Source: Phycisphaerales bacterium | Lineage (GTDB): Bacteria; Planctomycetota; Phycisphaerae; SM23-33 | DNA length: 64,000 nucleotides | NCBI GenBank assembly: GCA_018644725.1 | Contig: JABGPZ010000069.1 | Span: forward strand, 84,238-148,237 | Reading direction: 5' to 3' | Shown here: in pieces, positions 9,207 through 56,067 of the stretch | Layout of the letters: every line of letters starts with the position of its first letter | How positions within the stretch are numbered: the stretch's first letter is position 1 | Notes under the pieces: generated by a model | What the model saw: the letters and a program-made list of their open reading frames with translations, nothing else | Databases searched by the model: none | What the model was told of the DNA's origin: nothing | Position numbers and translations under genes: made by a program

Positions 9207-9255
9207 TGACGGGTAACAAGTAGTTCGCCTTACATGACTAATGGGAGAATTGGCA

Positions 9256-10113
9256 ATGGAACAGCAAGAACTTGGAATACTTGACCTCTTGAAAATCAGG
9301 GGGCTTGATGTTACCGCAAAAGCAAAAATGCTTCGGCATCAAGACAAGCGCTTCGATGTAGATCAGCTTATTCGCGATGGCTGGCTTGAGGTGTATCAAG
9401 GCCATCAGGCAAAACCTCGCTTGAAGGGGTGTGAATATTTTTTGGCCTTCAAGGGTGATGGTGGAACCCGTGCGAGATTTCTTGGCGTGTATCGTATTTT
9501 GAAAGAACGAAAAAGTACCCGCAAGGACATGCCCAAAGGATGTCCACTGGCGAGATTTACTAATCCATGGGAATATTATTATGAGCATGAGTTGGACAAG
9601 CGTTTCGATGACCTGAGGGGCCGAATTGTAATTGAATGGGGTAAGGGGACACTTGCGTGGGCTCAGAACTTAAGAAACAAACCGATACTTGAAATTTACC
9701 CGCCTGGCCGCGTTCTTGCGCCATTTACGGATTACATGGATTTCATTTTATCGTACCAAGAGCTTCAAGACCTTATGAAGAATCCTGGGGCTCACCGCGA
9801 TTGGAAATCGAGCCTTTCGGCGGTGGCCGGGGTCTATTTGATTTGGTGTGAATCCACCGGTCAGCAATACATTGGCTCAGCTTATGGTTCGGATGGTATA
9901 TGGGGCCGATGGGAGCAGTATGCGAAGAAGGCTCACGGCGGGAATAAGCTGCTCCGGGAACTACTTAAGAAGGATCCTGATGCGGCCGAAACGTTCCGTT
10001 TTTCAATTCTGCAGGTGTTGCCAAAAACGACGAAAAATTCAGAAGTGATCCGCTGGGAAACCCAATACAAACGGAAGCTTGGCACAATTGCGATCGGATT
10101 GAACGCTAATTGA
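9256..10113 (+). CDS. Unknown N-terminal domain (~190 aa) fused to a C-terminal GIY-YIG nuclease domain; on a low-GC island
   Basis: C-terminus GVYLIWCESTGQQYIGSAYGSDGIWGRWEQY…NKLLRELLKK…IRWETQYKRKLG carries the GIY…YIG, catalytic Arg, and Glu motifs. GGGAGA RBS sits 9 nt before ATG 9256. Local GC is about 40-45% versus about 60% in flanks, with AT-rich codon usage. Confidence 0.7.
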   Translation: MEQQELGILDLLKIRGLDVTAKAKMLRHQDKRFDVDQLIRDGWLEVYQGHQAKPRLKGCEYFLAFKGDGGTRARFLGVYRILKERKSTRKDMPKGCPLARFTNPWEYYYEHELDKRFDDLRGRIVIEWGKGTLAWAQNLRNKPILEIYPPGRVLAPFTDYMDFILSYQELQDLMKNPGAHRDWKSSLSAVAGVYLIWCESTGQQYIGSAYGSDGIWGRWEQYAKKAHGGNKLLRELLKKDPDAAETFRFSILQVLPKTTKNSEVIRWETQYKRKLGTIAIGLNAN

Positions 10114-10126
10114 AAGGAGCATACTC

Positions 10127-10420
10127 ATGGGGCAATCCTATACAGCTAAATGTAAGAAGTGTGGCGAAGAGTTTGAGTGCTGTGAAGGCGATAGTTCCAT
10201 GGCCCGATTGATCAAATGCGATATGTGTGGCAAGGATTGTTGGTGCCGAAACCCTTTAAGGAAAGGGCCAGCTATCGAGATGCTAGATTTGTCCGAGAAG
10301 CCTCCAGCGCAATGTGAATGCGGCGGGAAGTTTATACTCGGAGCCCCGTCGAGATGCCCGAAATGCCGAAGCACCGAGATAGGTGTGGCTCTTGGTTACG
10401 GCGTGACCATGTATGATTGA
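10127..10420 (+). CDS. Cys-rich multi-zinc-ribbon small protein (97 aa), partner of the GIY-YIG gene
   Basis: Six Cys pairs: CKKC, CC, CDMC, CWC, CEC and CPKC. Starts 13 nt after the upstream stop with GGAG RBS. Same low-GC composition. Confidence 0.55.
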   Translation: MGQSYTAKCKKCGEEFECCEGDSSMARLIKCDMCGKDCWCRNPLRKGPAIEMLDLSEKPPAQCECGGKFILGAPSRCPKCRSTEIGVALGYGVTMYD

Positions 10421-18289: not shown

Positions 18290-19705
18290 ATGATGAAACG
18301 ACTGATTGTTTTGACGCTTCTACTGGCCGGAGTTGCTGCACAGATGTCTCCCCCCGCGATGGCGCTGGGCCGATATGATCGCACGCAAAAATGGTATTGT
18401 GGGAACACCCACATGCACTCGTTCTGGTCCGATGGCAACCACTTTCCCGAAATGGCCGCGTCGTGGTACAAGAACAACGGCTACCAGTTCGTCGTTCTCA
18501 CCGACCATAACAATCGTCCGACGGAAGAAGGCTGGAAAGATATTTCTCGTTACAAGGCCGAGGATCCCGCCGGGACGCTCGCGAACGAATTCGGCCACGA
18601 TCACGTCAAAACCAAGCAGGATGCCAAAGGCAAGACGCTCCATCGCTTGCTGAGTTATGATGCGGTTTCGAAACTGGTGAATGCTCATGGGGAATTCCTG
18701 TTCATCCCTGGCGAAGAACTCACGAGCAAAGCGGGGCGCAATCCTGTCCATATGTCCGCGATCAACACCGGCAAGACCATCGGTGTGGTGCAAAAGGGGA
18801 CGGTTCTCGAAACCGCCAAGGCCAATGCCGCCCGTGCTCGCGCTCACGAAAAATCGTACACGCCGCCCAATACCCTGCGCCAGATGGATCACCCCGATAC
18901 GCGACCTTTGTTCCTCCAGCTGAATCACCCCAACTGGCGCTGGGACATGACGGCCGAGGTGCTCGCCGCGACGACCGACGCGGATGGCTTTGAGCTGATC
19001 AATCCCGGGTGTCATAATCTGGGCGATGCGCATTCGCCCTCCACCGAGCGGATGTGGGACATCGCTACGACGTTGCGCTTGAAGGAATTTCTCACCAAGC
19101 CGATCTGGGCTGTCGCGTCCGACGATACGCACAACTATCACGACTTCGAGAAAAACGCCACCAAGGCCAATCCAGGCCGCGGCTTTGTCATGGTTCGCAC
19201 TACGGTCCTCTCGACATATCACATTTCCCAAGCACTCAAGGTCGGCAACTTTTACGCCTCGACGGGTGTGGTTCTCAAGACCGTCGAATTCGATCCCAAA
19301 ACGCGCGAGCTGACGGTGGAGGTTGACCCGGCCGATGGCGGCAAGAGCTATACCATCGAATTCATCGGTACGTCGAAGACTGTTTCGATGGACTCCACCC
19401 CCGCGCCCGCGCATCGCGATAAGAGCAAGGGCAAGGGCAAATCCGTCCCGCGGAAGATCACGCGCATCTATTCCAAGGAGATCGGCAAGGTTCTCCAGAC
19501 CGTCAAAGGCAAAACCGCCGCGACGTTCAAGCTTCCCGCCGATCTGCTGTATGTGCGATGCAAGGTGACCGACACCTCGCACAAGGGGTACACTTGGCGC
19601 GGCGAAACGATCCCGCGCGCGGCCTGGACCCAACCCGTCGGCTGGGAACCCGCACTGGCGGAACTCAAAGCCGCCGCAAAAACCAAGGCCAAAGCGAAGA
19701 AATAG
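18290..19705 (+). CDS. Secreted PHP-domain (polymerase/histidinol-phosphatase-like) metal-dependent phosphoesterase
   Basis: Signal peptide MMKRLIVLTLLLAGVAAQ…AMA, then GNTHMHSFWSDG (PHP HxH motif) and further His/Asp-rich blocks. AAGGAG RBS before ATG 18290. Confidence 0.6.
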   Translation: MMKRLIVLTLLLAGVAAQMSPPAMALGRYDRTQKWYCGNTHMHSFWSDGNHFPEMAASWYKNNGYQFVVLTDHNNRPTEEGWKDISRYKAEDPAGTLANEFGHDHVKTKQDAKGKTLHRLLSYDAVSKLVNAHGEFLFIPGEELTSKAGRNPVHMSAINTGKTIGVVQKGTVLETAKANAARARAHEKSYTPPNTLRQMDHPDTRPLFLQLNHPNWRWDMTAEVLAATTDADGFELINPGCHNLGDAHSPSTERMWDIATTLRLKEFLTKPIWAVASDDTHNYHDFEKNATKANPGRGFVMVRTTVLSTYHISQALKVGNFYASTGVVLKTVEFDPKTRELTVEVDPADGGKSYTIEFIGTSKTVSMDSTPAPAHRDKSKGKGKSVPRKITRIYSKEIGKVLQTVKGKTAATFKLPADLLYVRCKVTDTSHKGYTWRGETIPRAAWTQPVGWEPALAELKAAAKTKAKAKK

Positions 19706-21815: not shown

Positions 21816-22082
21816 TGCTGATCATTCCTTGGGTTGGCCTGTTCAGCGGGGAACAGGAGTGTTCGGTCGCTCTCGTTAATGAGAACTTGTCTCAACAGGG
21901 GGAGTATAGCGAGCAGGTTCCGCTTTGTCAACTAATAAGACAAGATTCTATTAAGAAAATTGGGACTAGAGTAGAGCGGAATGAAAGGCAGGCCGTAGCC
22001 TATGGATTTTGGGGCGCGACAGCCGGAAGTTTTCGACTTTGGTTACAGGAAATTTTCGGCTCATCTGTGATTCGTGCGGAGA

Positions 22083-22150: not shown

Positions 22151-23560
22151 CTAGCTGCGTTTTTTGACGCCTTTGGTGACGTCGGCCATCCATGCGTTGA
22201 GTTTGACGCGGAGAGCTTTGACGACGGTGGGGTTCTGGGCGGCGACGTTTTTCCTTTCGCCGATGTCCTTCGAGAGATCATAGAGTTGCACGCCTTTGGC
22301 GACGGCCTTGGCGGAAGCTTTCTTTTTTGCGGAGGCACCGGAGGCGATCAGCTTCCATTTGCCCGAGCGGATGGCGATGCCCTTGTTGACGCCCCAGAAC
22401 AGATCGCGCTTGGCGAGGGCCTTGCCGGTGGTCCAATGGTCCATCAGGCTCACGCCGTCGAATTTGCGTTCGGCGGGGAGCTTCGCGCCGCCTGCATCGG
22501 CGAGTGTCACCAGCACATCTGCGCCCATCATCGTCTCTGCGGATTCGGTGCCGGCCTTGATCTTGCCCGGCCATTGCACACATGCGGGGACGCGGTGGCC
22601 GCCTTCGTTGATCGAGCCTTTGCGCCCTTTGAGTCCCCCGGACGAGCCCTCGTGGGCGGGGCCATTGTCGCTGAAGAACAGCACGATGGTGTCGTTCTCG
22701 AGTTTGCATTCGCGCAACGTTTCGAGGACTTTGCCGATGCCTTCGTCCATGACCTCAATCATTTCGGTATAGGCGCGCATGGCTTTTGCGCCTTTGGGGA
22801 CCGCGTCGCGGTCCACGACGAGTTGGCCGTCTTTGCCATCTTTGCGGCTACGCTGGGGAGGGTCGTTGCGGCCTTGGAGCGGATAGTGCGGCGCTTCGTG
22901 CGGCAGGTAGAGGCAGAAGGGCGTGTCTTTGTGGCGGCGGATAAAGTCGCAGCCATATTTCGTGATCAGGTCGGTCGTATAGCCTTTGTCGTCCTCTTTC
23001 TTCAGACCGTTCCACCAGTCGAAATGGCCTTCCTGGTCGATGTGGCTGTGGAAATCAACGTTGCCACTGACGTAGCCGCGGAACTCGTCGAAGCCTTGAT
23101 GCGTCGGGTTGAATTCCTTCGCGTAGCCAGTGTGCCACTTGCCGAAGAGGGCCGTTTTGTACCCGGCGGTCTTGAGGACTTCGGCGAAGGTGACTTCGGC
23201 CTGGTCGAGGCCGGTGTGGCGGTGGGACTTGGCGGTGACCACGCCGGTGATGCCCGAGCGCTGTTGGTAGCGGCCGGTGAGGAGCGCCGCGCGCGTGGGG
23301 CTGCAGACCGCGCCGTTGGAGTGGAAGTCGGTCATGCGCAGGCCGGCTTTGGCGATGGCGTCGACGTTGGGCGTCTTGAAGCGCTTGGAGCCGAAGCAGG
23401 TGATGTCGCCATAGCCGAGGTCGTCGGCGAGGATGATCACGAAGTTCGGTTGTTTACGCAACTCATTCGCGGCGGCGGGTTCGCCGAGGGCGAGTTTCGG
23501 TGCAGCCAGTGCGGCGGCGGCGAGCGAGGTGGTCTTCAGGAAGTGGCGGCGTGAGGTCAT
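22151..23560 (-). CDS. Arylsulfatase (sulfatase family, formylglycine-dependent) with TAT signal
   Basis: Twin-arginine signal SRRHFLKTTSLAAAALAA. Sulfatase signature CSPTRAALLTGR (the Cys converted to FGly) and metal-binding DDLGYGD. Confidence 0.85.
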   Translation of the reverse strand: MTSRRHFLKTTSLAAAALAAPKLALGEPAAANELRKQPNFVIILADDLGYGDITCFGSKRFKTPNVDAIAKAGLRMTDFHSNGAVCSPTRAALLTGRYQQRSGITGVVTAKSHRHTGLDQAEVTFAEVLKTAGYKTALFGKWHTGYAKEFNPTHQGFDEFRGYVSGNVDFHSHIDQEGHFDWWNGLKKEDDKGYTTDLITKYGCDFIRRHKDTPFCLYLPHEAPHYPLQGRNDPPQRSRKDGKDGQLVVDRDAVPKGAKAMRAYTEMIEVMDEGIGKVLETLRECKLENDTIVLFFSDNGPAHEGSSGGLKGRKGSINEGGHRVPACVQWPGKIKAGTESAETMMGADVLVTLADAGGAKLPAERKFDGVSLMDHWTTGKALAKRDLFWGVNKGIAIRSGKWKLIASGASAKKKASAKAVAKGVQLYDLSKDIGERKNVAAQNPTVVKALRVKLNAWMADVTKGVKKRS

Positions 23561-23633
23561 GCGAATCTCCGTGGTTTGCGTTGATGTCCGTGTACATTGA
23601 TCCTGGCTTCTGCGCGCAGAGCTCAGGCATGGG

Positions 23634-23692
23634 CTACCAGTATAACGAATCCCGCCGGGATTTATTCACCCTTCTCGCAGTCATTTTCGGAG
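23634..23692 (-). promoter_or_regulatory. Conserved 55-bp upstream element, copy 1 (78-132 nt upstream of sulfatase start)
   Basis: 47/55 nt identical to 26238-26292. Minus strand reads CTCCGAAAATGACTGCGAGAAGGGTGAATAAATCCCGCCGGGATTCGTTATACTG. It contains the palindrome ATCCCG-C-CGGGAT, a TATACT -10-like hexamer, and a 16-codon uORF MTARRVNKSRRDSLYW. Confidence 0.5.
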
Positions 23693-24709
23693 ATGGTGTT
23701 TCAACTCGTTTGCGAGCAGGCGGGTAAATGTGGCGGCGCCGTCGTGGTTGAGGTGGCTCCCGTCGGGACAGCGGATCTCCCGTGCGGCGGGGATGTCGAG
23801 GAAGTGAATGCTGTCTACGTCCAGCTCGCGCACCATCTCGTCCCACAGCGGCCGATTGGTTTGGTGGATCGGCAGGCGCACGAAAATGACCTGCCCGCCC
23901 GATGCCTTGATCGCATCGATGTCCCGTTTGATGGTTGCGACCTGCTTCCCCCACGCCTCCTTGGCGGCCTGGGTTTTCCACAACGGTGTTTGCTGCGGGG
24001 TCACCCAGCGGATCGCAAGGCGGCGGCCATACTGTTGTTCGAGTTGGGCGGGGGTGAAGAATCGGTCGTAGAACGCTTTGCGCTGGCGGCTGGGCTGGTC
24101 TACCCAAAACGCATCGGGATGGTCGCGCTTGAGAACGTGCGCGAGGCTTTTCCAGCAGGAATAGTTCCATGCGTGGACGTGCTGTTGGAGTTTGGCACGG
24201 ATCAATTCGTTCGCGATTTTTTCGTGTTTGCCGAGATTGCCGAACATGCTGGTGTAGATGTCAACGAGGGGCTGTTGGGACTCGCGCCGGGCGCGGCCGG
24301 GGGAAGGATTGATCCACGCGGGCTCGAACGAGACGATCACCGTGCCGCTGTAGTTTTCTTCGGCGAGATAGTGTAGCGTGGCCTTGGGGTTTTTTCCGAA
24401 CATCGCCAGCAGGAATGTCGGCCGGTCGGGGAATTCCCCGGCAAAGACCTCCGCGTCAAATCCAAGTTGCGCCCGCGAAGCACCCAACATGGCGATGGTG
24501 GTTTTTGGGGCGGGGTGGGCCATCAACCGGTCCATCTCAATCGCCCAGCGGTAGACGCTGTCGCCCGCTTGGGCCTGGGTCGGCCCGGTGCGATAGTACC
24601 AACTCAGCCCCAGCGTGAGCGTAGCAAAAACGATTGCCCCCGTGAGCCATTGCGCACGATAGCCAATCTTCGGCAGGCGGTGGTTAGAACTGGAAATAGA
24701 GGAAGGCAT
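23681..24709 (-). CDS. SGNH/AlgX-AlgJ-like periplasmic partner of the MBOAT O-acyltransferase
   Basis: N-terminal TM anchor. The C-terminal DGSHLNHDGAATFTRLL resembles SGNH block V (DGxHLN..G). The 26-nt overlap with the upstream MBOAT gene suggests translational coupling. The architecture matches AlgI/AlgJ, PatA/PatB and DltB/DltD pairs. Confidence 0.55.
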   Translation of the reverse strand: MPSSISSSNHRLPKIGYRAQWLTGAIVFATLTLGLSWYYRTGPTQAQAGDSVYRWAIEMDRLMAHPAPKTTIAMLGASRAQLGFDAEVFAGEFPDRPTFLLAMFGKNPKATLHYLAEENYSGTVIVSFEPAWINPSPGRARRESQQPLVDIYTSMFGNLGKHEKIANELIRAKLQQHVHAWNYSCWKSLAHVLKRDHPDAFWVDQPSRQRKAFYDRFFTPAQLEQQYGRRLAIRWVTPQQTPLWKTQAAKEAWGKQVATIKRDIDAIKASGGQVIFVRLPIHQTNRPLWDEMVRELDVDSIHFLDIPAAREIRCPDGSHLNHDGAATFTRLLANELKHHLRK

Positions 24710-26108
24710 TGCCTGCTCCTTGTGCGGTCATTTCAGCGAAAATGGCGAAGACCATCGCGCCCAGAATCAGTCCGCGTAGCCATCCGGGCAGGCGGGCGAA
24801 TGTTTCTTCCATCGTTTTGTTTCGCGAGTACCAGTGGACCCCGAGCGTTACGCCCGTGAACAGCAGAACCTGCAGAAGGTGGTGCGTGGGGAGCGTGCTG
24901 GCACAAGAGCTTTGGCCGGTCATGCTGGCGATCATCGTTCCCGCCGCGTGGAAACTTCGCGCACGGAAGAACACCCACGCAAAACAGACGGCGATAAATG
25001 TCAGCGCGCACAGCAGGATCTGCATGGGATAGCTCGCCCAGAGTCGTTGGGGCGCGAACCATTTTCGCAGGAGCTGTTCGAGGACGAGATAGCTCCCGTG
25101 CAGGCCGCCCCAGACGATAAACGTCCAGCTCGCGCCATGCCACAGCCCGCCCAGAAGCATCGTCAGCGCGAGGTTGCGGTAGGTCTTGAGTTTGCTGCAG
25201 CGACTGCCGCCGAGGGGGATGTAGAGATAGTCCCGCAGCCAGGTCGACAGCGACAGGTGCCAGCGTCGCCAGAAGTCGGAAAACCCGATCGCCGCGTAGG
25301 GGAAGTGAAAGTTGTCGGGCAGGATGAAGCCCAGACACAGCGCCGCGCCGATGGCGATGGTGGAATAGCCCGCGAAGTCGCAGAAGATCTGCACCGAAAA
25401 CGCCAGCGTCCCCGCCCACGCGTCGACGAAGGAGTGGGCCGTTTGGAAGTCGTAGACCGATTCGACGATCGGCGCGAGTGTGTCGGCGATGGCGGTTTTG
25501 CAGAACAGGCCGATGATCATCAGCGTCAGACCCCATTGAAATTGCTTGCGCGAGGCGCGCTTGGGCTCATCGCATTGGGGCAGGAAGTCCACCGCGCGCA
25601 CAATCGGCCCGGCGACGAGCTGGGGAAAGAAGGTGACGTACAGGGCGTAGTCGAGGAAGCAGTGCCACGGCGTGGCTTTGCGGCGGTAAATGTCGATGGT
25701 GTAGGAAAGCGTCTGGAAGGTGTAAAACGAAATCCCCACCGGCAGGACGATGCTCATCGTCGCGGGGTGCCAGTCGAGCCCGAGGCTCTGGGAGAGCGCG
25801 ACCAGATTGTTGACGAAGAAGTTGGCGTATTTGAAGTACCCCAGCATGCCGAGGTTAATCCCCAGGCTCGCCCACAGGTAGAGCCGGCGGCGGCGTAGGC
25901 TGTCGCTGGTGTGGATGGCGCGGGCGAGATGCCAGTCCGCAAGGGTCGAAATCCAGAGCAAAATCACGAACGGGGGATTCCATGCGGCGTAAAACAGGTA
26001 GCTGATCAGGAGCAGGAACGATTTGCGCAGCGTCCAGCTTTTCATGGACCGCGAGACCACCATCACGGCGGCAAAGAAGATCAGGAAGGTGAATGAGTTG
26101 AAAAGCAT
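24684..26108 (-). CDS. MBOAT-family membrane-bound O-acyltransferase (AlgI/DltB-like)
   Basis: 474-aa polytopic protein with conserved MBOAT blocks (…WRRWHLSLSTWLRDYLYIPLGG…, an invariant His in a TM region, and C-terminal LWHG). Confidence 0.85.
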   Translation of the reverse strand: MLFNSFTFLIFFAAVMVVSRSMKSWTLRKSFLLLISYLFYAAWNPPFVILLWISTLADWHLARAIHTSDSLRRRRLYLWASLGINLGMLGYFKYANFFVNNLVALSQSLGLDWHPATMSIVLPVGISFYTFQTLSYTIDIYRRKATPWHCFLDYALYVTFFPQLVAGPIVRAVDFLPQCDEPKRASRKQFQWGLTLMIIGLFCKTAIADTLAPIVESVYDFQTAHSFVDAWAGTLAFSVQIFCDFAGYSTIAIGAALCLGFILPDNFHFPYAAIGFSDFWRRWHLSLSTWLRDYLYIPLGGSRCSKLKTYRNLALTMLLGGLWHGASWTFIVWGGLHGSYLVLEQLLRKWFAPQRLWASYPMQILLCALTFIAVCFAWVFFRARSFHAAGTMIASMTGQSSCASTLPTHHLLQVLLFTGVTLGVHWYSRNKTMEETFARLPGWLRGLILGAMVFAIFAEMTAQGAGNAFLYFQF

Positions 26109-26236
26109 GGAGTGGTCCTCAGGGTTCTAATTCACGGAGTGTAAATGATTTCAGGAGAGCTTTCAACCGATTTTCTCACGTTTGACCATCGAGGGGACAG
26201 AGGATTTGCCAGAGGGAATGACCGCCCTGCGAGTCA

Positions 26237-26292
26237 TCAGTATAGCGATTTCCGCCGGAATGGATTCACCCTTCTCACCGTCATTTTCGGAG
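26237..26292 (-). promoter_or_regulatory. Conserved 55-bp upstream element, copy 2 (130-184 nt upstream of MBOAT start)
   Basis: Minus strand reads CTCCGAAAATGACGGTGAGAAGGGTGAATCCATTCCGGCGGAAATCGCTATACTG. Its palindrome TTCCG-G-CGGAA carries a compensatory change relative to copy 1. The uORF is MTVRRVNPFRRKSLY. It sits exactly 2600 bp from copy 1. Confidence 0.5.
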
Positions 26293-26307
26293 GTCGATCC
26301 TGATTCC

Positions 26308-26333
26308 TTCGGTTGGTACTACTGTATAGAAGG
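26308..26333 (-). promoter_or_regulatory. Shared motif B (CTTCTATAYAGTAGTACCAACC), copy upstream of MBOAT operon
   Basis: 24/26 nt identical to 26870-26896. Contains TATACA/TATATA -10-like hexamers. Confidence 0.35.
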
Positions 26334-26858
26334 CTGCGGAACGGCTTGGGGTTTGTGCCAGCCCTCGCGCAGGCCCTGTTGGAGAAAGGCTTCGAAGCGG
26401 GTGTGGAGAGCGGGGTTGGCCTTTTTGAGTTCGATGACCGACTTTCCCAACGGAAGCTCACCGACTCCGAACTCAAAGTAGATGTGGCTGAGGATCGATT
26501 CCTGCTTGGCTTTCGGCAGGCGGTCGAACGCGGCGTTGAACGTCGTGGGTTTGCCTTTGAAGATGATCTTCATAAGGTCTGCGCAAAAAAGTTCAGCAGG
26601 TCCGCCGTCGACTTCCTCACAGATTGACAGAAAGTCGTAGGTGACATTGGGGTCGTCGGATTCAATCACGACCTCGGTCAGATAGGATCGTCCTTCCAGG
26701 TCCGAAGACAAGCAACGGAATGCTGCGCCCAGGAGTTTTCCATCGGTAGGGCGATGTGCGGCCGGGGCGGTGGGGGGTGCGGGCTTGTTCTTCCCGCCGC
26801 AGCCAGCGAGGATTACAGCCGAAATTAACAGCGCGGCGAATGTGATTGTGCGTTTCAT
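26319..26858 (-). CDS. Hypothetical lipoprotein (179 aa)
   Basis: Signal/lipobox MKRTITFAALLISAVILAGC. AAGGGAG RBS sits 6 nt upstream of ATG 26858. Motif B lies immediately upstream of the RBS. Confidence 0.5.
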   Translation of the reverse strand: MKRTITFAALLISAVILAGCGGKNKPAPPTAPAAHRPTDGKLLGAAFRCLSSDLEGRSYLTEVVIESDDPNVTYDFLSICEEVDGGPAELFCADLMKIIFKGKPTTFNAAFDRLPKAKQESILSHIYFEFGVGELPLGKSVIELKKANPALHTRFEAFLQQGLREGWHKPQAVPQPSIQ

Positions 26859-26869
26859 GTCAAACTCCC

Positions 26870-26896
26870 TTTGGTTGGTACTACTATATAGAAGCA
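26870..26896 (-). promoter_or_regulatory. Shared motif B copy, putative promoter of the lipoprotein gene
   Basis: GCTTCTATATAGTAGTACCAACC followed by AAAGGGAG and ATG within about 15 nt. Spacing fits a -10 followed by a short leader. Confidence 0.35.
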
Positions 26897-27053
26897 AGCG
26901 GGGGGAATGCAAGGGGGAGGGTTTGAAAAAGGGGATTCGGCGCGGGATGGTCCGGCGAGACGGCCAAAATCGCGTGAAAACGGTATTTTTTGCTGTTTTT
27001 AGGGTTAGTGGGGGTTGTTGCGATAAAAAAAGTGAAAAAAAAACGAAAGAGAA

Positions 27054-55987: not shown

Positions 55988-56067
55988 AAAAACAAAAATC
56001 ACTCTTGAATTTCGACGGGGGGTCGGTATAATATCCGACCTCCAAGGAATAGAATTCCTTGGGAATG

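Follow-up and report, generated by a model that had tools for sequence, protein, structure and literature searches.

Why a 55-nt sequence should stand in two similar copies before two different transcription units is the question raised by this locus. In the 64-kb stretch of Phycisphaerales DNA that was analysed (the window), copy A precedes a sulfatase gene and copy B precedes the gene for an MBOAT O-acyltransferase and its SGNH-like partner; the original prediction had read the element either as a shared promoter-operator module or as a conserved leader. We consider it probable, on comparative grounds, that the element is a housekeeping (sigma-70-type) promoter of the sulfatase gene that was duplicated once, locally, when the lineage had already separated from its nearest relative in the sample. 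The two copies and the genes around them are as follows.

23638-23692, minus strand: copy A of the element (55 nt), ahead of the sulfatase gene; overlaps the final three codons and stop codon of the SGNH-like gene; an ortholog copy is present in the sister species
26238-26292, minus strand: copy B of the element, upstream of the MBOAT gene; entirely intergenic; unchanged in 9 contigs of other samples
22151-23560, minus strand: sulfatase gene (TAT signal, PF00884), downstream of copy A
23681-24709, minus strand: gene for the SGNH-like partner of the MBOAT protein, with an N-terminal membrane helix
24684-26108, minus strand: MBOAT O-acyltransferase gene, downstream of copy B

The two copies are direct repeats that share the minus strand with the neighbouring genes, and they are identical without gaps at 47 of 55 nt and lie 2600 nt apart from start to start, exactly as first described. 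The flanking sequence had been called unrelated, and this was borne out both upstream and downstream, with no relatedness beyond the 55 nt (local alignment against shuffles, p = 0.93-0.98). Two degenerate patterns, one of the 27-nt core and one of the -35/-10 arrangement (33 nt), hit the 64-kb window only at copies A and B, and neither was found in 100 shuffles. Both copies had been described as intergenic, which is correct for copy B; the TGA stop codon of the SGNH-like gene (23681-23683), however, falls within copy A, which is thus only partly intergenic. The last T of the TATACT hexamer in the element is 78 nt from the ATG of the sulfatase gene (23560) in copy A and 130 nt from that of the MBOAT gene (26108) in copy B. 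The identification of the MBOAT partner as SGNH-like was upheld by the agreement of its invariant GxSR and DGSH motifs, an AlphaFold model (pLDDT 82) and Foldseek matches to TesA, PatB and rhamnogalacturonan acetylesterase. In addition, the arrangement is the same in 10 contigs with the adjacent 179-aa gene, which come from different samples and display zero polymorphism, so that no population signal can be drawn from them.

The single available relative with the element is a sister species (L025), whose sulfatase is 82% identical (ortholog P0133; about 84% for the gene at the nucleotide level) and which carries one copy in the same place before this gene. The L025 element is identical to copy A at 41 of 55 positions without gaps (P about 1e-11); the remainder of the sulfatase intergenic region of L025 cannot be aligned to the window, and homology between the 5' leaders of A or B and L025 was non-significant under three scoring schemes. 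Across the three sequences, 37 of the 55 positions are invariant and fall into three blocks with a constant 19-nt spacing, CTCC.AAAATGAC, GGGTGAAT and CGTTATACTGGT being kept in L025 at identical spacing, and all eight differences between A and B avoid the invariant positions. Overall identity makes no case for constraint, since the core matches L025 at 75% and the adjacent gene does so at 76% of its 4-fold degenerate sites; the argument comes instead from the block pattern together with the unalignable flanks. Distant sulfatase homologs (55-59% identity, L027-L033) lie in operons or have unrelated upstream DNA, and the contigs of relatives found via EF-Tu end about 190 nt before tuf, short of the locus.

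The same alignment bears on the order of events. The core has 18 non-invariant positions, and at 15 of them one pair of sequences agrees against the third (A with B at 10, A with the ortholog at 4 and B with the ortholog at 1; chi-square p = 0.015); this excess shows that A and B are sister copies, more closely related to one another than to the ortholog. Copy B and L025 have two short stretches in common that copy A lacks: TGACTCG, the 7 nt that follow TATACTGR, and GAC, the 3 nt in front of CTCC. A simple history in which A is the original and B its copy leaves this sharing unexplained.

A wider regulon gained no support from the sequences scanned. No third copy was found in the window with GGGTGAAT-N18-20-TATACT allowing mismatches, with the upstream block at up to 3 mismatches, with an ECF-like pattern or with an extended -10. 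Scans of 185,579 species genomes and of the JGI metagenomes with AAATGACNNNGAGAAGGGTGAA, which demand 19 exact bases and could miss divergent copies, yielded nothing beyond copy B of the organism itself (L011, L012 and L020) and chance matches, each inspected by eye.

The conserved blocks can be laid out as parts of a promoter.

23680-23692, minus strand: upstream block CTCCGAAAATGAC of copy A; A-rich and UP-element-like, at about -60 to -48 from the predicted start; 12/13 in L025 and 13/13 in copy B
26280-26292, minus strand: upstream block CTCCGAAAATGAC of copy B, a 13/13 match to copy A
23664-23671, minus strand: GGGTGAAT box of copy A, the same in A, B and L025; holds the weak -35 candidates TGAATA (18 nt from the -10) or GTGAAT (19 nt)
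26264-26271, minus strand: GGGTGAAT box of copy B, by pattern match
23639-23644, minus strand: TATACT of copy A, predicted -10; unchanged in A, B and L025; one of 14 TATA[AC]T sites in the window
26239-26244, minus strand: TATACT of copy B, predicted -10; has CGC in front of it, like the hemP promoter at 21908
26138-26166, minus strand: another promoter-like site from the promoter scan, TTGAAA-17-TACACT, downstream of copy B and ahead of the MBOAT start

Sigma-70-type promoters combine a -10 box near TATAAT with a -35 box near TTGACA at a distance of 17 +/- 1 nt, and transcription starts 5-9 nt past the -10. TATACT matches TATAAT at 5 of 6 positions. The element had been credited with a TATACT 18 nt downstream of a conserved box; counted from GGGTGAAT, the distance to TATACT is 19 nt, alike in A, B and L025. 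On both strands of the 64-kb window TATA[AC]T occurs 14 times, the majority of the sites precede genes or tRNAs, and many lie 16-18 nt past a TTG-type hexamer, often with GC just before; the top-scoring promoters of the window scan (hemP and a tRNA) have a -10 of the same type. This rarity and promoter-like placement make the invariant TATACT credible as a -10 box, and, with TATACT, GGGTGAAT and CTCC.AAAATGAC found at the same spacing before the sister-species sulfatase, the promoter-like part of the original prediction emerges strengthened. What speaks against it is the poor -35, for which TGAATA/TGAATC offers 3/6 consensus matches at 18-nt spacing and GTGAAT stands at 19 nt, and the reliance on a single orthologous sequence. 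A consensus promoter scan of the window made no call at either element; the tRNA promoter at 56027 has TTGAAT as its -35, similar to the element's GTGAAT. A look-alike at 10310-10338 (GTGAAT..CGGCGGGAA..TATACT) was set aside, as its spacing differs and it falls within an ORF for a Cys-rich protein of 97 aa.

Two further features of the element, a palindrome in the spacer and a short reading frame, and a second repeat pair next to copy B enter into the alternative explanations.

23648-23662, minus strand: palindrome AATCCCG-G-CGGGATT (7+1+7) of copy A, in the spacer; not kept in L025
26250-26260, minus strand: palindrome TTCCG-G-CGGAA (5+1+5) of copy B, in the spacer
23634-23684, minus strand: 16-codon ATG frame of copy A, regarded as a by-product; the start codon shares bases with the TGA that ends the SGNH-like gene (ATGA)
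26237-26284, minus strand: 15-codon ATG frame of copy B, judged a by-product
26306-26339, minus strand: right copy of the second repeat pair, which is 34 nt long and 85% identical; stands 13 nt ahead of copy B; reproduces the -10 and 5' leader found at the promoter of the 179-aa gene, whose stop codon it contains
26868-26901, minus strand: left copy of the second repeat pair, within the actual promoter (TTGCAT-16-TATATA) and leader of the lipoprotein-like 179-aa gene

The spacer palindrome invites the idea of a promoter with a lineage-specific operator, at which a dimeric regulator (a repressor that blocks the polymerase or a MerR-type activator that re-aligns GTGAAT and TATACT) would act jointly on the sulfatase and on the acyltransferase pair; we regard this as rather unlikely. 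The palindrome of copy A, originally written ATCCCG-C-CGGGAT, is 7+1+7, has a quality reached by about 2% of random 55-mers from the window and is centred near -23 in a spacer that is constant at 19 nt in three sequences, and both copies keep the core CCGGCGG with one arm pair changed from C:G to T:A; however, the 5+1+5 palindrome of copy B is ordinary (its quality is reached by 23% of random 55-mers), the dyad is absent from L025 at that position (TTTGTGGAGAGAGG), and a third A/B change in the palindrome breaks an outer pair, with one symmetric transition pair among three differences in 13 nt being expected about 1 time in 10 by our own estimate. The likeness of the A and B spacers (11/16 identical) could mean a lineage-specific binding site, but recent duplication accounts for it equally well, and among about 30 window ORFs scanned with Pfam there is no MerR-family or other regulator gene. 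The pair change had originally been taken as compensatory, in support of a dimer operator or an RNA hairpin, and this view is further undercut by pair counts similar to those of shuffles (174 of 500 reach the observed percentage paired), by folding z-scores of -0.85 to +0.63, by a consensus fold of only -4.9 kcal/mol and by the lack of visible covariation in the element; the palindrome is best read as spacer sequence that would be specific to this lineage. The other half of the hairpin idea, a cis-acting RNA in a transcribed leader, is scarcely credible, as is its companion, a leader peptide or uORF translated from the 15-16 codons: Rfam gave no gathering-score match in the window and none at E <= 1 in 23540-26420, and the scan called no intrinsic terminator in either element, the palindrome being followed by TCGTTATAC without a U run. 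The ATG frames do exist as first described, are open in A, B and L025 and end just past TATACTG, and the overlap of the copy A start with the upstream stop would suit translation, but they do not behave as a conserved peptide. No Shine-Dalgarno site precedes the ATG, where CCTCCGAAAATG has CCTCC in place of a purine-rich site, whereas all three neighbouring genes have GGAG-type sites; the peptides differ (MTARRVNKSRRDSLYW, MTVRRVNPFRRKSLY and MTRGWVNNLWREALYW), with 8 of 16 residues changed between orthologs, among them two R-to-W replacements and one of R by G. Nucleotide differences in the frame number 6, 2 and 5 at codon positions 1, 2 and 3, a frame with nine variable codons should be open in about 65% of cases (our estimate), and the frame lies upstream of the start predicted from TATACT; in our judgement it would simply fall out of the conserved nucleotide blocks. 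Recognition by an ECF-type sigma factor, with the element read as TGAAT, 16 nt and CGTTA, is very improbable. ECF promoters carry 'AAC' at -35 and 'CGT' at -10 with 14-17 nt between (PMC5758882), and CGT does stand 16 nt from TGAAT in copy A and L025, within that range; but copy B has CGC for CGT, whereas TATACT is invariant, GAAT at the -35 of all three sequences gives AAT and not the hallmark AAC, CGC or GC also precedes TATACT at ordinary promoter sites of the window, and no sigma or anti-sigma gene is present among the window ORFs scanned.

A different kind of explanation, which we hold to be unlikely, makes one copy a scar without function. The repeats would then be by-products of a rearrangement in which the MBOAT/SGNH-like pair came to lie between the sulfatase and an ancestral promoter, and at most one copy would still be a promoter. 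This explanation draws on the 34-nt, 85% identical pair that brackets the adjacent 179-aa gene, whose right copy lacks the -35 and the gene start and resembles a leftover, and on the fact that in both repeat pairs the right-hand repeat carries the stop codon of the bracketed gene. Protein searches of the database found no close ortholog of the MBOAT protein (best 63%) or of its SGNH-like partner (best 31%), unlike the sulfatase with its counterpart in the relative, so that copy B is seen in no second genome; a different gene stands ahead of the element in L025, and the MBOAT gene has a promoter-like site closer to its start. Against a scar, the promoter blocks are whole in both copies and the eight differences miss them, and the arrangement is fixed in the 10 contigs from different samples. 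TGACTCG, the ancestral 3' flank, follows the left copy (B), inside the bracketed segment, and not the right one, a placement that does not fit the geometry of a target-site duplication. Moreover, G+C is uniform along the locus without compositional anomaly, only the MBOAT and SGNH-like genes lie between the repeats, and no recombinase, transposase or integrase occurs among the window ORFs scanned, all of which agrees with the preferred promoter reading. An improbable further reading is that gene clusters were built in a manner not described before, by insertion guided by promoter homology, whereby modules (the 179-aa gene; the MBOAT/SGNH-like pair) bracketed by 85%-identical direct repeats of promoter sequence would each have received a promoter and left another to the gene behind; in its regulatory variant, the spacer palindrome would be a new operator tying the sulfatase to glycan O-acylation.

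Our preferred model is thus a duplicated housekeeping promoter, in which the sulfatase would be transcribed from the -10 TATACT and a weak -35 within the GGGTGAAT box, with a predicted start about 7 nt past TATACT, and in which the A-rich block CTCC.AAAATGAC (about -60 to -48) may serve as an UP element or activator site. Local duplication would have given the core of about 55 nt twice, once before the MBOAT/SGNH-like pair and once before the sulfatase. If both copies fire, the sulfatase and acyltransferase units would answer the same promoter-recognition signals, and co-regulation of the two units is plausible; the promoter-like site at 26138-26166 is nearer to the MBOAT start, so copy B may instead be redundant or silent. 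Suppose, however, that both are active. An exported sulfatase would in that case be expressed together with a pair of membrane O-acyltransferase proteins (PatA/PatB- or AlgI/AlgJ-like), a hint that the desulfation of external glycans and the acylation of the cell's own glycan might be connected. To our knowledge, promoters of Phycisphaerae are essentially unmapped, and our literature search returned nothing specific on mapped promoters of Planctomycetes; the blocks set by ortholog and paralog comparison would offer a concrete -10, -35 and upstream architecture for Phycisphaerae. The gains are modest and pose no challenge to current knowledge.

Compared with known systems, the locus departs from a simple tandem or target-site duplication, neither of which predicts a second bracketing repeat pair of the same identity or the stop codons in the right-hand repeats. 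MerR-family promoters have a 19-20-bp spacer with a dyad operator between the -35 and the -10. The element is similar in the 19 nt that separate GTGAAT from TATACT in A, B and L025, provided that GTGAAT is the -35, and in the dyad near -23 in A and B, but this dyad is short (11-15 nt) and is missing in L025 at the same spacing, and no MerR-type gene is nearby. With sigma-70 promoters that have an UP-like region the element shares a TATAAT-like -10 (TATACT), a position 50-130 nt before a start that bears a Shine-Dalgarno site, an A-tract near -55 and blocks at fixed spacing in the ortholog; it differs from them in its poor -35 and in the GGGTGAAT box, which lies 1-2 nt further upstream than usual. 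Finally, the pair has the appearance of a promoter duplication, or of the gain of an internal promoter, within a gene cluster, with a short direct repeat inside 2.6 kb, each copy before a transcription unit, and A and B as the closest relatives of one another.

The two 55-nt repeats, copy A and copy B, belong to a minus-strand locus of uniform G+C content, laid out as follows.

Features of the locus, in gene order (positions in the window)
26858-26319, minus: 179-aa lipoprotein-like gene, first in gene order
26292-26238, minus: copy B of the 55-nt element, between the 179-aa gene and the MBOAT gene
26108-24684, minus: MBOAT O-acyltransferase gene, after copy B
24709-23681, minus: 342-aa gene, overlapping the MBOAT gene
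23692-23638, minus: copy A of the 55-nt element, between the 342-aa gene and the sulfatase gene
23560-22151, minus: TAT-exported sulfatase gene, after copy A, followed by a terminator-like hairpin

A Pfam and NCBIfam search with the 342-aa protein gave no match; GxSR and DGSH motifs are invariant in its distant homologs (n = 15), and its AlphaFold model (pLDDT 82) structurally matches TesA, PatB and rhamnogalacturonan acetylesterase. Judged from this model together with the motifs, the protein is SGNH-like, and the gene labels of the original prediction therefore hold.

The repeat is real. As predicted, the copies are 47/55 identical without gaps, lie 2600 nt apart and have unrelated flanking sequence; degenerate versions of the core found no third match in the window and none in 100 shuffles. 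Two details are amended: TATACT lies 19 rather than 18 nt from the GGGTGAAT box, and the copies are not both strictly intergenic, as the TGA that ends the 342-aa gene falls within copy A. A sister species (contig L025; 83-89% DNA identity in the tuf-rpoB region) carries a single copy, the ortholog, immediately upstream of its sulfatase gene (82% identity by BLASTP, 85% in a global alignment), and the gene preceding that copy is different from, and unrelated to, the one at copy A. The three cores align without indels and therefore share the 19-nt spacing; 37 core positions are invariant (A shares 41 with the ortholog and B shares 38), forming three blocks, CTCC.AAAATGAC, G.GA.GGGTGAAT and TATACTG (CGTTATACTGGT in A and the ortholog). 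Under three scoring schemes, the rest of the intergenic region, the 5' leader as far as the Shine-Dalgarno site, could not be aligned between A or B and the ortholog. Since overall core identity to the ortholog (75%) is about that of the 4-fold degenerate sites of the sulfatase gene (76%), constraint is argued from the arrangement in blocks and from how the flanks differ, a moderate and not an overwhelming case.

The two strands of the window together contain only 14 TATA[AC]T sites, and most of these sit before genes or tRNAs, many of them 16-18 nt after a TTG-type hexamer and often with GC preceding the -10. Promoter-like sites include TTGACA-17-cgcTATACT before hemP, TTGACT-16-TATAAT and TTGAAT-16-TATAAT each before a tRNA, and TTGCCA and TTGCCC variants before a glycosyltransferase gene and another gene; the exceptions are two sites within coding sequence, at 10333 and 37188. 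From this placement, the organism seems to rely on canonical housekeeping promoters; the set offers a first look at those of this Phycisphaerales lineage. The element, with its invariant TATACT directly preceded by CGT or CGC, is in keeping with them. Its -35 is weak (TGAATA/C, 18 nt away, matching at 3/6; GTGAAT sits at 19 nt), which may be why a conserved A-rich block is present upstream, at about -60 to -48. The predicted leaders are 78 nt for the sulfatase, 130 nt for MBOAT and 49 nt for the ortholog. With moderate confidence, we regard a duplicated housekeeping-type promoter core as the best explanation of the repeat, and co-regulation of the sulfatase and O-acyltransferase pair would be a plausible consequence; no further copies indicating a regulon were found, in scans insensitive to divergent copies. 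Reading the element as an ECF-type promoter (TGAAT-N16-CGT) fails, as the AAC hallmark is missing and copy B also lacks the CGT. Another promoter-like site, TTGAAA-17-TACACT (26138-26166, minus), lies downstream of copy B, some 30 nt ahead of the MBOAT start codon, and MBOAT may therefore have a separate promoter.

The original prediction had also offered the palindrome as a dimeric operator site or an RNA hairpin, and a short ATG frame as a leader peptide or uORF; the single ortholog at hand supports none of these. The palindrome exists, with arms of 7 nt in copy A that correct its reported length, and is moderately unusual there, ~2% of random 55-mers having one as good, and unremarkable in copy B (23%). 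The ortholog has AATTTGTGGAGAGAGG at this position, with no dyad, and pair counts across the three sequences do not stand out from column shuffles (174/500). The one double change between A and B is accompanied by a third that breaks the outer pair; by our estimate, chance would give such a pattern in about one case in ten. Neither strand of either copy folds better than shuffles, the consensus fold reaches -4.9 kcal/mol, and Rfam gave no match at the gathering threshold or at E <= 1. The ATG frame is open in A, B and the ortholog, as would be the case about two-thirds of the time with blocks conserved in this way. It has no ribosome-binding site, the predicted transcription start lies downstream of it, and the orthologs differ at half of its residues, radical replacements included. 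A near-perfect palindrome like that of copy A, GTCCCGGCGGGAT (18564-18576), falls within overlapping 465/495-aa ORFs with no Pfam match; in coding DNA this rich in G+C, the resemblance is probably a coincidence.

Of the 18 core positions that vary, 15 have the same base in two of the sequences: A and B agree at 10, A and the ortholog at 4, and B and the ortholog at 1 (p = 0.015). A and B are therefore sisters, presumably through a duplication or homogenisation later than the separation of the species; a constraint specific to the lineage and common to both copies is the alternative. The ortholog's flanks, 3 nt before and 7 nt after the core (GAC...TGACTCG), recur at copy B and not at A, contradicting a target-site duplication as well as a history with copy A as the original. 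The protein database contains the relative's sulfatase and no ortholog of MBOAT (best 63%) or its partner (best 31%), which gives a hint, short of proof, that the sister species lacks the pair. The organism itself recurs in many samples: the stretch between the 179-aa gene and MBOAT is identical in nine contigs, and none of 10 contigs showed a variant lacking the pair.

Independent assemblies break around copy A (contigs L026, L011 and L012): two contigs of different assemblies both end exactly at 23790, and the first base of another is 23654, in the middle of the palindrome of copy A. Possible causes are that palindrome, low coverage and strain variation. Contigs of the organism and the sister species reached via tuf (L013, L014 and L015) all end ~170-190 nt upstream of tuf, at a tRNA gene, a recurrent break that conceals the locus in the relative.

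Two further sites were seen in the window. At its A/T-rich, non-coding start, a tandem array (407-520, plus) has ~46-nt units each with TGT(G/A)TCGTAGGG; two full units are 74% identical, a third motif follows, and one unit contains a GGGCGAAA...TTTCGCCC hairpin. At 9241-10420 (plus), a 290-aa protein carrying a GIY-YIG nuclease domain at its C-terminus is directly followed by a 97-aa zinc-ribbon-like ORF rich in CxxC motifs, and together they may form a small nuclease or defence-type module.

A further direct repeat, also imperfect (26306-26339 and 26868-26901; 34 nt with 85% identity), brackets the 179-aa gene. Its upstream copy, 26868-26901, is the gene's real promoter and leader (TTGCAT-16-TATATA...AAGGGAG-ATG); the downstream copy has no -35, includes the stop codon of the gene and stops 13 nt short of copy B. 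Two neighbouring modules thus each lie between promoter-derived repeats, with the same percent identity in the two pairs, and this is the one mildly odd feature of the locus. The 34-nt pair looks like a structural by-product, and this lowers the certainty of explaining the 55-nt pair by regulation alone. Taken as a duplicated promoter core, the 55-nt element is a new instance of an already known kind of feature.
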